From Chloroflexota bacterium (GTDB lineage: Bacteria > Chloroflexota > JAJPGV01): DNA of 64,000 nucleotides. The translations under genes and the position numbers were made by a program. The stretch covers positions 20,397 to 84,396 of the forward strand of contig JBOGTU010000077.1 of assembly GCA_050695655.1 (NCBI GenBank). Direction: 5' to 3'. Shown here piece after piece: positions 34,132 to 37,412 of this stretch (the first letter of the stretch is position 1; every line of letters starts with the position of its first letter). The notes beneath the pieces were generated by a model that did not search any database, was not told where the DNA came from, and saw only the letters and a program-made list of their open reading frames with translations.

Positions 34132-35748
34132 TCAGCTTGGCCCCTCGCGCGGGTTCTCCGTTGTTCGCGGGGTCAGGGGGCGGCTGGCTGGGTGCTCGGG
34201 CAGCGCGATGACGCGCGGGTCCTGGCCGCGGAAGTGGTTGGTCCAGGAGCAGGTGCCGCGGGTGCCGGGCACCGGCGGCACGAGCAGCGCCTCCAGCTCG
34301 GCCGTGCTGCTGAGGGCTTTGCTGAGGCGGTAGCGCTGGTTGTGGATGCACTCGCGGTCGCCGAACTCGCAGCGGTTGTTGCTGGTGCCGCCGCAGGGGC
34401 CGTTGGCCAGCCCCTTGGGGCACGTTTCCGGGCATACGTACTGGGTGTAGGGCAGGCGGCAGAAGCCGCAGCTGCGGCAGCCGACCAGGGGCTCTTTGGT
34501 GGTTTGCTCCAAGCGCAGCAGGGCGCGGTCCAGCACGGGGATGTGCCCCACCGAGAGCAGGCGCATCACGCCGGCCGCGGGCGCACGGTCCTGAAAGATG
34601 GCGCGATCGATCGCGTCCAGGAAGTGGAATTTGGCCTGGCCGCCGAAGCCGGCCTTCGCGGTGGAATCCACCTGCGCCCGCGGTCCGCTGAGCACCGCGC
34701 CCGCCTCGGCCAGATAGAAGCCGCCGGCTGGCGCGGTGGCGGCTACGCGGCCATCGTGTAAGCGCAGCGCCGCGTCCCACGCCTCCTGCCAGCTCGGCAG
34801 GTCGGGCAGGCTGGCCCGCAGCTCGGCCGCGGTGTCCAGCAGCTCCCGCGCGCCGGCCACCGTGTGCACGCCCGTGAGCTGCACGCCGGAGTAGCCAGCC
34901 AGCTCCAGGCCTACCATCTGAAGCGCTAAGCGGCGCCGGCGTGCCGCGCGCCCACCATCGGGCGCCTCTGCCTCCTCACCGCTCAGCCGCAGCAGATCGT
35001 CCGTCAGGCTCACGCCGGGTGCGCCGCCGGCGCGAATCCAGCGGGCGGTCCGTGGCGAGGGAGAGAGGATGGCCGCCAGCAGCGGCACGCCCGGCAGGCG
35101 CAGACGCGCCACCTCCAACAGTTCGCGATGCTTGGCGAAGTCCAGCCCGATCTGGGCGATGATGAAGTCCGCTCCGGCGCGAACTTTTTTGGCCATCTTG
35201 AAGTACTGGTTGAAGAGCTCTTCCTCGCGGTACTTGAAGCTGCTCACCACGGCGCCCACGTGCAGCCCCGCCTGGTCGCGCTTGGCCTGCGCCACCACGT
35301 TCACGGCGTCCAGGTACTCCACCTGGCGGTCACCTCGGTCGCGCTCCACGCGATCGCCAGTGATGGCCAGCAGGTTCTCCAGCCCCGCGGTCGCCAGGGC
35401 CTCCAGCGAGCGCTCCAGATCATCCGGCGTGCGATCCTTGCCCGCCCAGTGCACCAGAGGCTGCACGCCGCAGCGCTGCGCCACCCAGGCGGCCGTGGCA
35501 ACAGGATCGTGATCGCTATCGGACTTCACGCGATCGGTCACCGCCACGGCGGCGATCCGCTCGTCGCCGCCCATCGCGGTGGCGAACTCATGGAAAGGCT
35601 TCAGGGCCTCCGCCAGCGGCCGGTCGGCGCGCGGTGTCACCAGCTCCACGTTCACCGCGAACTGCCCGGCGGCGAGGCGCTGCCGGAAACGGTTCACCCA
35701 GCCACCGGCACTCGGGCTGGCTGGCTGCGTGCCCGACAGTTCAAGCAC
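34132..35748 (-). CDS. Methylenetetrahydrofolate reductase family protein with C-terminal Cys-rich zinc-ribbon (MTHFR_C-like) domain
   Basis: N-terminal TIM-barrel MetF-like region (FAVNVELVTPR...AITGD...). C-terminal CRSCGFCRLPYTQYVCPETCPKGLANGPCGG cysteine cluster. Confidence 0.65.
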   Translation of the reverse strand: MLELSGTQPASPSAGGWVNRFRQRLAAGQFAVNVELVTPRADRPLAEALKPFHEFATAMGGDERIAAVAVTDRVKSDSDHDPVATAAWVAQRCGVQPLVHWAGKDRTPDDLERSLEALATAGLENLLAITGDRVERDRGDRQVEYLDAVNVVAQAKRDQAGLHVGAVVSSFKYREEELFNQYFKMAKKVRAGADFIIAQIGLDFAKHRELLEVARLRLPGVPLLAAILSPSPRTARWIRAGGAPGVSLTDDLLRLSGEEAEAPDGGRAARRRRLALQMVGLELAGYSGVQLTGVHTVAGARELLDTAAELRASLPDLPSWQEAWDAALRLHDGRVAATAPAGGFYLAEAGAVLSGPRAQVDSTAKAGFGGQAKFHFLDAIDRAIFQDRAPAAGVMRLLSVGHIPVLDRALLRLEQTTKEPLVGCRSCGFCRLPYTQYVCPETCPKGLANGPCGGTSNNRCEFGDRECIHNQRYRLSKALSSTAELEALLVPPVPGTRGTCSWTNHFRGQDPRVIALPEHPASRPLTPRTTENPREGPS

Positions 35749-35861
35749 GGCTTCTACTCTGACGGAGCCACGCCATTAACGCAAATTACAGTTATCGCCC
35801 AAATCCAGTAGATAGAGCTGATGCCGCAGTCGCTAACGATAAATTCGTTTACACTAGAAGG

Positions 35862-37412
35862 ATGAAACAGTCGCAAAATCCTGCCGAACGAATCATCCGC
35901 CGCTTTGGCGGGCAGAGCTCCCTGGCGACGTTGCTGGGAAAACGCCAGAGCACTGTGCAGCACTGGGCATCTACCGGGCGCATTCCGGCGCAGTGGCACC
36001 AGCCACTGATCGCACTCGCCCGCCGGCAGGCCATTGCGCTTGAGGCCAAGGACTTTGTTGAGGCCGCGGCGCCCTCTATCGCGCCGGCTGAGGGGCGGCT
36101 GGGTGTGCTGCTGGTAGGTTTGGGCGCGGTTGCGTCCACACTCATCGCTGGGGTAGAGCACGTCAGGCGGGGCACAGGTGTGCCGGTGGGCTCGCTCACG
36201 CAGATGGGCACTATTCGCCTGGGCCGGCGCGACGAGAAGCGCAGCCCCTACATCAAGGATTTCGTGCCGCTGGCCTCGCTGGATCAGCTGGTCTTCGGCG
36301 CCTGGGACCCCTTCCCGGATAACGCCTACCAGGCCGCTGTCAAGGCGGGGGTACTGGACCGCCACAAGCACATCGAGCCCATCGGCGGTGCGCTGAAGGA
36401 GATCGAACCCATGGCCGCCGTGTTCGATCAGCACTACGTGAAGCGCTTGAACGGCAGCAACGTGAAGCCCGCCAGGTCCAAGCGAGAGCAGGTGGAGAGC
36501 ATCCGCAAGGACATCCGCGACTTTCAAGACATCAATGGCTGCAGCCGGTTGGTGATGGTATGGTGCGCCTCTACCGAAATCTTCCTTGAGCCGGGCCCAC
36601 AGCACCAGACGCTGGCCGCTTTCGAGGAGGCGCTGGCCAGGGACGATCCAGCTATCGCTCCCTCCATGCTCTACGCGTACGCCGCGCTGCAGGAAGGTGT
36701 CCCCTTTGCCAACGGCGCCCCCAACCTGACGGTGGACATTCCAGCGCTGGTGTCGCTCGCGACGAGCAGAGGCCTGCCCGTGATGGGCAAGGACTTCAAA
36801 ACCGGCCAAACGCTGATGAAGACGGTCATCTCGCCCATGCTCAAGGCCCGTATGCTTGGGCTGCGCGGCTGGTACTCCACCAATATCCTGGGTAACCGCG
36901 ACGGCGAAGTGCTGGATGACCCCGAGAGCTTCCGCACCAAGGAGGAATCGAAGCTGGGCGTCCTGGAGCACATTCTGCAGCCGGCGCTGTATCCCGAACT
37001 GTACGGCGACGTCTACCACAAGGTGCGCATCAACTACTATCCGCCCAGCGGCGACAGCAAAGAGGGCTGGGACAACGTGGACATCTTCGGCTGGCTGGGC
37101 TATCCCATGCAGATCAAGATCGACTTCATGTGCCGCGACTCCATCCTCGCCGCGCCGCTGGCCCTGGACCTGGCGCTGTTCATGGACCTGGCGCACCGCG
37201 CCGGGATGAGCGGCATCCAGGAGTGGCTGTCGTTCTACTTCAAGAGCCCGCAGCATCCGCCCTCGGTGTACCCGGAACACGACCTGTTCATCCAGCAGAC
37301 CAAACTCAAGAACACCCTGCGCTGGCTCATGGGTGAGGAGCAGATCACGCACCTAGGCCTGGAATACGCCCAGGAATCCGCCAACGCTGAGGAGCTGGCC
37401 GCCAGCGCGTAG
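35862..37412 (+). CDS. ino1: myo-Inositol-1-phosphate synthase with an in-frame N-terminal Cro/YdaS-like helix-turn-helix extension
   Basis: The MIPS core runs from RLGVLLVGLGAVASTLIAGV (NAD-binding) to the C-terminus. The first ~65 aa (GGQSSLATLLGKRQSTVQHWASTGRIPAQWHQPLIALARRQ) match the YdaS/Cro HTH pattern. No in-frame stop or canonical internal start separates the two parts. Confidence 0.75.
   Translation: MKQSQNPAERIIRRFGGQSSLATLLGKRQSTVQHWASTGRIPAQWHQPLIALARRQAIALEAKDFVEAAAPSIAPAEGRLGVLLVGLGAVASTLIAGVEHVRRGTGVPVGSLTQMGTIRLGRRDEKRSPYIKDFVPLASLDQLVFGAWDPFPDNAYQAAVKAGVLDRHKHIEPIGGALKEIEPMAAVFDQHYVKRLNGSNVKPARSKREQVESIRKDIRDFQDINGCSRLVMVWCASTEIFLEPGPQHQTLAAFEEALARDDPAIAPSMLYAYAALQEGVPFANGAPNLTVDIPALVSLATSRGLPVMGKDFKTGQTLMKTVISPMLKARMLGLRGWYSTNILGNRDGEVLDDPESFRTKEESKLGVLEHILQPALYPELYGDVYHKVRINYYPPSGDSKEGWDNVDIFGWLGYPMQIKIDFMCRDSILAAPLALDLALFMDLAHRAGMSGIQEWLSFYFKSPQHPPSVYPEHDLFIQQTKLKNTLRWLMGEEQITHLGLEYAQESANAEELAASA

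Follow-up and report, generated by a model that had tools for sequence, protein, structure and literature searches.

Trigger enzymes such as BirA (biotin ligase/repressor), PutA (a ribbon-helix-helix domain plus proline dehydrogenases), NadR and the archaeal RbkR (riboflavin kinase/regulator) carry a DNA-binding domain on a working pathway enzyme, and have a conserved palindromic operator in the promoter of their own gene, implying autoregulation. The gene described here resembles them in both respects. It lies at positions 35862 to 37412 of a 64,000-nucleotide stretch of Chloroflexota bacterium DNA (GenBank assembly GCA_050695655.1, contig JBOGTU010000077.1; the whole stretch is called the window below), and it combines a DNA-binding helix-turn-helix (HTH) domain and an intact myo-inositol-1-phosphate synthase (MIPS) in one polypeptide, with a conserved candidate operator at its own promoter. 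The fusion differs from the described trigger enzymes in its enzyme (MIPS), its pathway (inositol) and the fold of its DNA-binding domain, which is an all-alpha Cro-type HTH and not a winged helix or ribbon-helix-helix; further, its own promoter is the only target seen so far, and binding to that target is a prediction. RbkR was likewise discovered by comparative genomics (PMC5397151).

The second group of relatives is formed by the phage Cro proteins, in particular those of Xfaso-1 (3bd1), N15 (2hin/6on0) and P22 (1rzs), whose (R)QS..(.)W recognition-helix signature is common to the fused HTH. Cro/cI operators typically have the form seen upstream of the fusion gene, a 17-bp site with two-fold symmetry. 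Phage Cro proteins stand alone, whereas the fused domain is covalently joined to a housekeeping enzyme encoded in the chromosome and not in a prophage, and its dimerisation is presumably supplied by the enzyme.

MIPS is the first, committed enzyme of inositol synthesis, and transcription of its gene is the main control point, for which dedicated ino1 regulators exist: IpsA in Corynebacterium and Mycobacterium, and Opi1/Ino2/Ino4 in yeast. These are separate proteins and, to our knowledge, regulation of MIPS genes in yeast and actinobacteria always proceeds through such separate regulators; here, in contrast, the regulator would be part of the enzyme. Existing descriptions do not extend to this arrangement. 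Homologues are annotated in databases simply as inositol-3-phosphate synthase; the NCBIfam entry NF046037 for the N-terminal domain holds a name (carph-isopro domain) and no function, so that an operator and MIPS autoregulation lie outside that annotation; and the nearest solved structure, Bacteroides thetaiotaomicron BT_1526 MIPS (PDB 7NWR, E 2.7e-165, query residues 72-497), aligns from chain residue 24 and query residue 72 onwards, leaving the HTH uncovered. The Bacteroides MIPS gene is located in an inositol-lipid cluster (PMC9246714), whereas the MIPS gene of the window stands alone among unrelated genes. A literature search, which was not exhaustive, found no paper on the carph-isopro name, on an HTH-MIPS fusion or on the operator.

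What appears new is therefore a Cro-type HTH on MIPS with a near-invariant putative self-operator in a probably leaderless promoter, present in at least two phyla; enzyme-repressor fusions are already known, and no new principle is involved. If the proposed autoregulation is true, the protein would add a new class to the small set of trigger enzymes, provide a defined protein-DNA pair, with a likely leaderless promoter, for the poorly studied Chloroflexota and Dormibacterota, and give a function to the uncharacterised NF046037, which is found in more than 1600 protein clusters. The autorepression model is directly testable, and a cultured host, Tepidiforma flava, exists.

A Cro-type HTH domain fused to a complete MIPS

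The open reading frame (ORF) begins at ATG 35862, the earliest in-frame start after the upstream stop, and runs to 37412 with neither a stop nor a plausible internal start between its two modules. HTH and MIPS are thus confirmed as a single polypeptide and a genuine fusion, with the following parts (AF2, the AlphaFold2 model; pLDDT, its predicted local distance difference test score).

35862..37412, + strand: coding sequence of the HTH-MIPS fusion, 516 amino acids (aa) plus stop
35880..36026, + strand: Cro-like four-helix HTH domain, aa 7-55 (carph-isopro match at aa 8-60; AF2 fold)
35946..35975, + strand: predicted recognition helix, aa 29-38, QSTVQHWAST (AF2 helix H29-38, aligned with the QSAISNW helix of Xfaso-1 Cro)
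36027..36095, + strand: linker, aa 56-78 (~23 aa), with conserved LEAKDF and IAPAxG motifs, lower pLDDT and no regular secondary structure
36096..37409, + strand: complete MIPS module, aa 79-516 (PF07994, PF01658 and 7NWR matches)

The MIPS module is intact by all profile comparisons. Residues 80-487 match PF07994 over the whole profile (positions 1-321 of 321; 321 bits against a cutoff of 25, E 1.3e-95), and PF01658 is matched with 112.8 bits against a cutoff of 27 (E 1.1e-32). The Rossmann motif GLGAVAST (aa 86-93) and the motifs KDFKTGQT, STNILGNRDG and CRDSILAAP are invariant or nearly so across 60 homologues; in MIPS structures the first of these is the NAD-binding motif and the others belong to the catalytic core. 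The module looks catalytically active and is predicted to convert glucose-6-phosphate to inositol-3-phosphate. A second copy of the HTH domain is absent from the six-frame ORFs of the window.

The identity of the N-terminal module was approached by profile and by fold. Residues 8-60 match NF046037 at model positions 1-53 of 54, with 61.6 bits for the whole protein and 67 bits for the isolated N-terminus, against a cutoff of 38. The Pfam families YdaS_toxin (PF15943) and P22_Cro (PF14549) score 16-23 bits, below their gathering thresholds of 30 and 30.2, and the domain is best regarded as a relative, not a member, of these two families. A profile built from 23 N-termini matches Xfaso-1 Cro (Xylella prophage, 3bd1) with an E-value of 4.9e-7, and other Cro proteins as well; the alignment runs through the HTH itself, pairing the query RFGGQSaLAaLLgrRQStvehWaktGRiPa with the Cro sequence KLGSVSALAASLGVRQSAISNWRARGRVPA. 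The AF2 model of the isolated domain (pLDDT 86.6) has four helices (H7-14, H18-25, H29-38 and H43-55), and its best folds in the PDB by Foldseek are 3bd1 (template-modelling score 0.62-0.67, root-mean-square deviation 2.4 A, 32% identity, probability 1.00), N15 Cro, including the operator complex 6on0, and P22 Cro; Foldseek E-values stay modest, at 0.02-3, because a domain of ~60 residues is small. In the N-terminal alignment, the invariant residues are those of the HTH turn and the recognition helix, with Q29, S30, T31 and W35 invariant and the recognition helix as a whole nearly so. These comparisons and the model together indicate an all-alpha, four-helix Cro-type domain with its HTH at helices 2-3.

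An earlier note on this DNA, made from its letters alone, had described the first ~65 codons as YdaS/Cro-like and fused in frame to a complete MIPS. Both descriptions hold: the fusion is borne out by the NF046037 and PF07994 matches and by the conserved architecture presented below, and the Cro likeness by the 3bd1 profile match, the Cro fold and NF046037, with the qualification that YdaS_toxin itself stays below threshold.

The domain also occurs widely outside MIPS. When the N-terminal profile was compared with 1.8 billion cluster representatives, 1627 proteins were matched at E<1e-3 and 199 at E<1e-10, and the NF046037 cutoff was passed by 149 of the 150 best matches. The domain is found alone or N-terminal to MIPS, P63C, RhuM, MEDS, IalB, RibB and MBL-fold partners; NF046037 is a widespread, catalogued Cro relative without an annotated function. 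Tandem arrangements were also seen: proteins P0223 and P0224 each hold 4-5 divergent HTH copies, and the 701-aa protein P0172 consists of ~11 tandem repeats of ~61 aa that partly match the domain profile, possibly a repeat array read in a frame that is open by chance.

Conservation of the fusion

The same HTH-MIPS architecture is present in 120 of the 120 best database homologues (75-97% identity, 496-549 aa), which come from metagenome-assembled genomes (MAGs) labelled Chloroflexota, Dehalococcoidia, Thermomicrobiales and Dormibacteraeota and share the N-terminal pattern RFGGQSALA.LLG.RQST..HWA.TGRIPAQWH.PL..LAR..G..LEAKDF. In a scan of one genome per species, relatives were found in 440 genomes, and the best 80 loci from these (L001-L080, 654 kb of DNA in total) were compared in detail. 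The fusion is present in all 80, among them the locus of the cultured Tepidiforma flava YIM 72310, whose genome is complete (CP115149.1, locus near 1.372 Mb), and loci on other complete chromosomes, from MAGs; Ktedonobacterales, Chloroflexia and Thermoflexaceae are also represented. Six of the fusion-bearing MAGs (L007, L010, L016, L017, L028 and L032) have unverified labels of Actinomycetes, Solirubrobacteraceae, Terriglobales, Conexibacteraceae, Hyphomicrobiales or Micrarchaeaceae; either these are mis-binned or mislabelled, or the range of the fusion is wider than Chloroflexota and Dormibacterota.

The HTH and Rossmann motifs are separated by an unvarying 71 codons. The entropies at codon positions 1/2/3 (79 loci) are 0.48/0.28/1.24 in the HTH region and 0.54/0.41/1.13 in the MIPS core. 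Because variability is concentrated at third codon positions in both regions, the HTH is translated in frame and constrained as strongly as the enzyme.

Chloroflexota also have a short-type MIPS that lacks the HTH. The same search returned a singleton 916-bp contig (protein P0157, locus L225, 385-909) in which the HTH is fused to a short mycothiol/archaeal-type, TIGR03450-like MIPS. No other database protein matches this architecture and no palindrome precedes it; either a chimeric sequence or an infrequent fusion event of separate origin could account for it. As a singleton on a 916-bp contig, with no homologue and no palindrome, it was not used as evidence of an independent HTH-MIPS fusion.

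A near-invariant palindrome in the promoter of the fusion gene

The first clue to a shared upstream element was that DNA preceding the gene translated repeatedly as NEKFV, RKIRY or TKNSL, which are three frames of one nucleotide motif. The motif is a palindrome, and in the window it adjoins a -10-like hexamer.

35834..35850, no strand assigned: 17-bp palindromic candidate operator TAACGATAAATTCGTTT (consensus TAACGAAAAATTCGTTA), with half-sites TAACGA/TCGTTA and a 5-bp A/T centre
35850..35855, + strand: -10-like hexamer TACACT, overlapping the right end of the palindrome

All but one of the 79 loci (78) have the palindrome directly ahead of the fusion gene, and the rest of the intergenic sequence is unalignable. 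A search of the 654 kb for the strict pattern TAACG-N7-CGTTA gave 58 matches, each of them at a fusion-gene promoter (58/58) and not one at any other place. By weighted score, true sites reach a median of 20.9 out of 21.5, and the maximum in 1453 control windows of 100 nt from the same loci is 17.0. With the 17-mer numbered 0-16, positions A1, C3, G4, G13 and T15 are invariant in 78/78 loci and A2 is kept in 77/78; entropy is 0.38 in the palindrome and 1.90, the background level, in the flanking intergenic DNA, though anchoring on the motif inflates these column values, which does not apply to the pattern count or to the comparison with control windows. A local repeat scan reported one weak direct repeat and no inverted repeat.

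Two loci depart from the common arrangement. L041, the only one of the 79 without a canonical site, has TAACGG-N11-CCGTTA, with the same outer half-sites and a longer spacer. L006 has two tandem copies of palindrome plus -10 (GATAACGAAAAATCCGTTAGAAT ... TTAACGAAAAATTCGTTAGGAT) ~70-20 nt upstream of the fusion start, which may be a duplicated promoter/operator.

The palindrome is placed at a fixed distance from promoter and start codon. Of the 78 aligned loci, 77 have a TAnnnT hexamer starting at the last two bases of the palindrome, and 37 have a -35-like TTG(C/A) 17 bp before the -10; in 74 of 79 loci the start codon lies 27-29 nt from the first base of the palindrome, which is 6-8 nt past the -10 box (6 nt for ATG 35862 in the window). 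The palindrome fills the 17-bp promoter spacer and touches the -10 box, which by its position would be a classical repressor location; promoters of MerR-type activators typically have a spacer of 19 bp, as compared to 17 bp here. A sigma-70 promoter scan of the window made no call at the fusion gene, the -35 being weak.

The aligned loci contain no Shine-Dalgarno-like information content between the -10 box and the start codon. Because of this, and because the start is only 6-8 nt past the -10, a leaderless transcript is the simplest reading, and the fusion mRNA is probably leaderless across Chloroflexota and Dormibacterota. The earlier note had remarked that a Shine-Dalgarno sequence abuts ATG 35862 and had suspected the start. 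A purine-rich AGAAGG does abut the ATG, but the leaderless geometry explains it: the -10 box ends at the same short distance from the start in nearly all loci.

Distribution of the palindrome among HTH-bearing genes

The exact 17-mer was found in at least 120 metagenome stretches. In 35 of these, an HTH-MIPS ORF follows within ~30 nt, and one more (L197) has the same arrangement in reverse orientation. Among the matches listed, the HTH-MIPS cases make up nearly all of the contigs with a guanine-plus-cytosine (GC) fraction of at least 0.55, and the remainder are AT-rich and lack the domain; AT-rich matches are expected by chance because the 17-mer is itself 70% A/T. The 10 matches in viral contigs, all AT-rich and lacking the domain, were likewise set aside as chance.

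Further, related sites precede several carph-isopro genes that do not encode MIPS. One mid-GC match of the metagenome scan, L179, has the exact 17-mer (2875-2891) ~50 nt ahead of a gene that combines a carph-isopro HTH with a P63C-type region. In L221, TAACGAAAAAAGCGTTC (483-499, score 19.2) lies upstream of a gene for a 212-aa non-MIPS carph-isopro protein, and two stand-alone HTH genes are preceded by CAACGAAAAACTCGTTC (L223, 1024-1040, score 19.2) and AAACGAAAATATCGTTA (L224, 390-406, score 19.9). L223 and L224 were picked since their over-called ORFs translated as the motif, and they are not an unbiased sample. Other carph-isopro genes do not have this palindrome upstream: those of L201/L202 (L201 being a P63C gene), L203 (MEDS), L204 (RibB), L215 and L222. 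Some of them are preceded by palindromes of another sequence. The palindromes of L219/L220 are marginal. A single operator for the whole carph-isopro family is ruled out by its absence at L201, L203, L204, L215 and L222. By these comparisons, the palindrome is tied to a subgroup of the HTH family and not to MIPS as such, as expected if the HTH reads the palindrome.

The RibB fusion of L204 (DHBP synthase) has a palindrome of its own: a perfect TTAGTTC-GATAG-GAACTAA at ~830-850, between a TATTAT box and the start codon. Its recognition helix, NQSAIAHW, differs as well, which suggests that MIPS is not the only enzyme with a self-operator.

Exact 17-mers also stand upstream of other kinds of genes. 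In L163 (108-124), the site is accompanied by a TTGACA -35 and a TAGCAT -10, followed by an apparent remnant of the first codons of the fusion (..GNP..); a second, weaker site, CAACGTAAAAATCGTTATAAT, lies at ~205-225, before a gene resembling type-II GAPDH (Gp_dh_C, E 2.9e-11). L163 may be a promoter capture or a second regulon member. In L134, a 64% GC contig, the site (663-679) comes right after TTGAC, upstream of a gene for a 461-aa polytopic, GT-C/PMT-type glycosyltransferase-like membrane protein, whose first 82 residues have no Pfam match. In L119 (137-153), it precedes a gene for an excisionase-like HTH_17 protein and then a tyrosine-recombinase-like ORF, which hints that the operator/HTH system is also carried on mobile elements.

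A model of negative autoregulation and its alternatives

MIPS enzymes are homotetramers, and all-alpha Cro proteins bind as dimers to operators with two-fold symmetry; the N15 Cro structure 6on0 is an operator complex. The quaternary structure of MIPS is conserved (PMC9246714). In the proposed mechanism, the enzyme oligomer would present paired HTH domains on ~23-residue linkers, and two of these domains would bind the half-sites TAACGA/TCGTTA, whose centres are 11 bp apart. The bound enzyme would occlude RNA polymerase at its own leaderless, sigma-70-type promoter and repress its own synthesis, giving a trigger-enzyme form of negative autoregulation. Binding could be gated by occupancy with NAD+, glucose-6-phosphate or an inositol phosphate, although such ligand control is speculative. 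We infer DNA binding by the domain, repression, the leaderless start and oligomer-assisted binding, and conclude that the fused enzyme is probably a repressor of its own gene, acting by binding to the palindrome in the promoter. The suggestion of the earlier note, that an enzyme with its own DNA-binding domain implies direct autoregulation, gains support from the conservation of the fusion together with the palindrome in its promoter.

Several observations weigh against this conclusion. The full-length AF2 model is poor (pLDDT 66, with residues 312-428 below 50) and is silent on oligomer geometry and domain docking. The window promoter has no recognisable -35, the last base of its palindrome is T and not A, and the transcription start site is placed by geometry only. 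Of the four non-MIPS genes that do have the palindrome, two were selected in knowledge of the motif. Finally, several carph-isopro genes with a similar recognition helix (L201/L202, L203, L215 and L222) lack the palindrome, and the specificity of helix for operator is not simple.

More tentatively, the carph-isopro HTH could be a portable self-operator module that makes the enzyme fused to it a metabolite-gated repressor of its own gene. In Chloroflexota and Dormibacterota, MIPS would then read glucose-6-phosphate, NAD+ or an inositol phosphate and set ino1 transcription from a leaderless promoter; inositol metabolism would thereby gain its first trigger enzyme, which would also be the first with a Cro-type domain. 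RibB, MBL-fold, MEDS and P63C partners would act likewise. This extension is possible but doubtful.

The foremost alternative, and a further point against autorepression, is that the palindrome is used by a separate regulator, either a stand-alone carph-isopro/Cro-like paralogue or an unrelated factor, and that the fused HTH has another role, such as binding other DNA targets, nucleoid tethering or hetero-oligomerisation with that regulator. Candidates for such a regulator exist: the small stand-alone proteins of L223 and L224 have nearly the same recognition helix and a palindrome upstream of their own genes, the domain has 1627 relatives of many architectures, and the exact site is present upstream of other genes in L163 and L134. 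However, site and fused gene co-occur almost one-to-one (78/79 loci), no neighbouring regulator gene is conserved across the 80 loci, and the invariant recognition helix of the fused domain, constrained like the enzyme, is hard to explain without DNA reading. We regard a separate regulator as unlikely, though a real contender to repression by the fused enzyme.

An appreciably weaker alternative takes the N-terminal module as a structural or oligomerisation extension of MIPS that has lost nucleic-acid binding. The N-terminal extension of eukaryotic MIPS does stabilise quaternary structure (PMC9246714), and the Pfam Cro and YdaS thresholds are not reached here. Yet it is DNA-binding Cro proteins in particular that the module matches by fold and by profile, the HTH turn and recognition helix are invariant with a cognate-looking palindrome in the promoter, and the same domain occurs on unrelated partners and stand-alone, so that a purely structural role is improbable.

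It is less probable still that the palindrome works as an RNA hairpin in a 5' leader, where it would control translation, cause attenuation or be bound as RNA by the protein. If transcribed from an upstream promoter, it could form a 6-bp stem with a 5-nt loop. Against this, the palindrome overlaps the conserved -10 and the start codon follows 6-8 nt later, such that it is probably untranscribed, and departures from symmetry break the pairing without compensation: 6 loci have G in place of T at position 14 with no change at the partner A2, and 6 have T at position 12 although G4 never varies. The upstream region also has no Rfam family match. A protein-binding DNA site is favoured over an RNA stem because of these uncompensated deviations, the probable leaderless transcript and the lack of an Rfam match.

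The alternative offered by the earlier note, that a frameshift, an assembly error or a miscalled start joins a small HTH gene to ino1, has only the unusual absence of a spaced Shine-Dalgarno sequence in its favour and is ruled out for practical purposes by an identical architecture in 120 homologues, every one with the HTH module and none with the non-HTH N-terminal extension that the note had allowed for, by its recurrence in 80 independent loci, complete genomes included, by the fixed 71-codon spacing and codon periodicity in the MIPS frame, and by the lack of any start codon before ATG 35862.

Genomic context

In the window the fusion gene lies among unrelated housekeeping genes: PcrA/UvrD, FapA, an MTHFR-like gene, a Zn-dependent dehydrogenase (Zn-ADH), TldD/PmbA, DnaJ and DnaK. 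Across the 80 loci there is no inositol operon and no conserved neighbouring or regulator gene; TruB and RbfA recur upstream in ~10 of them. By this comparison, the promoter-operator-gene unit travels as a self-contained cassette. The nearest upstream gene in the window is the divergent MTHFR-like one (34132-35748, - strand), which has a C-terminal cysteine-rich DUF5981 (PF02219 plus PF12225) and has in common with the fusion gene the 113-bp intergenic region that holds the palindrome.

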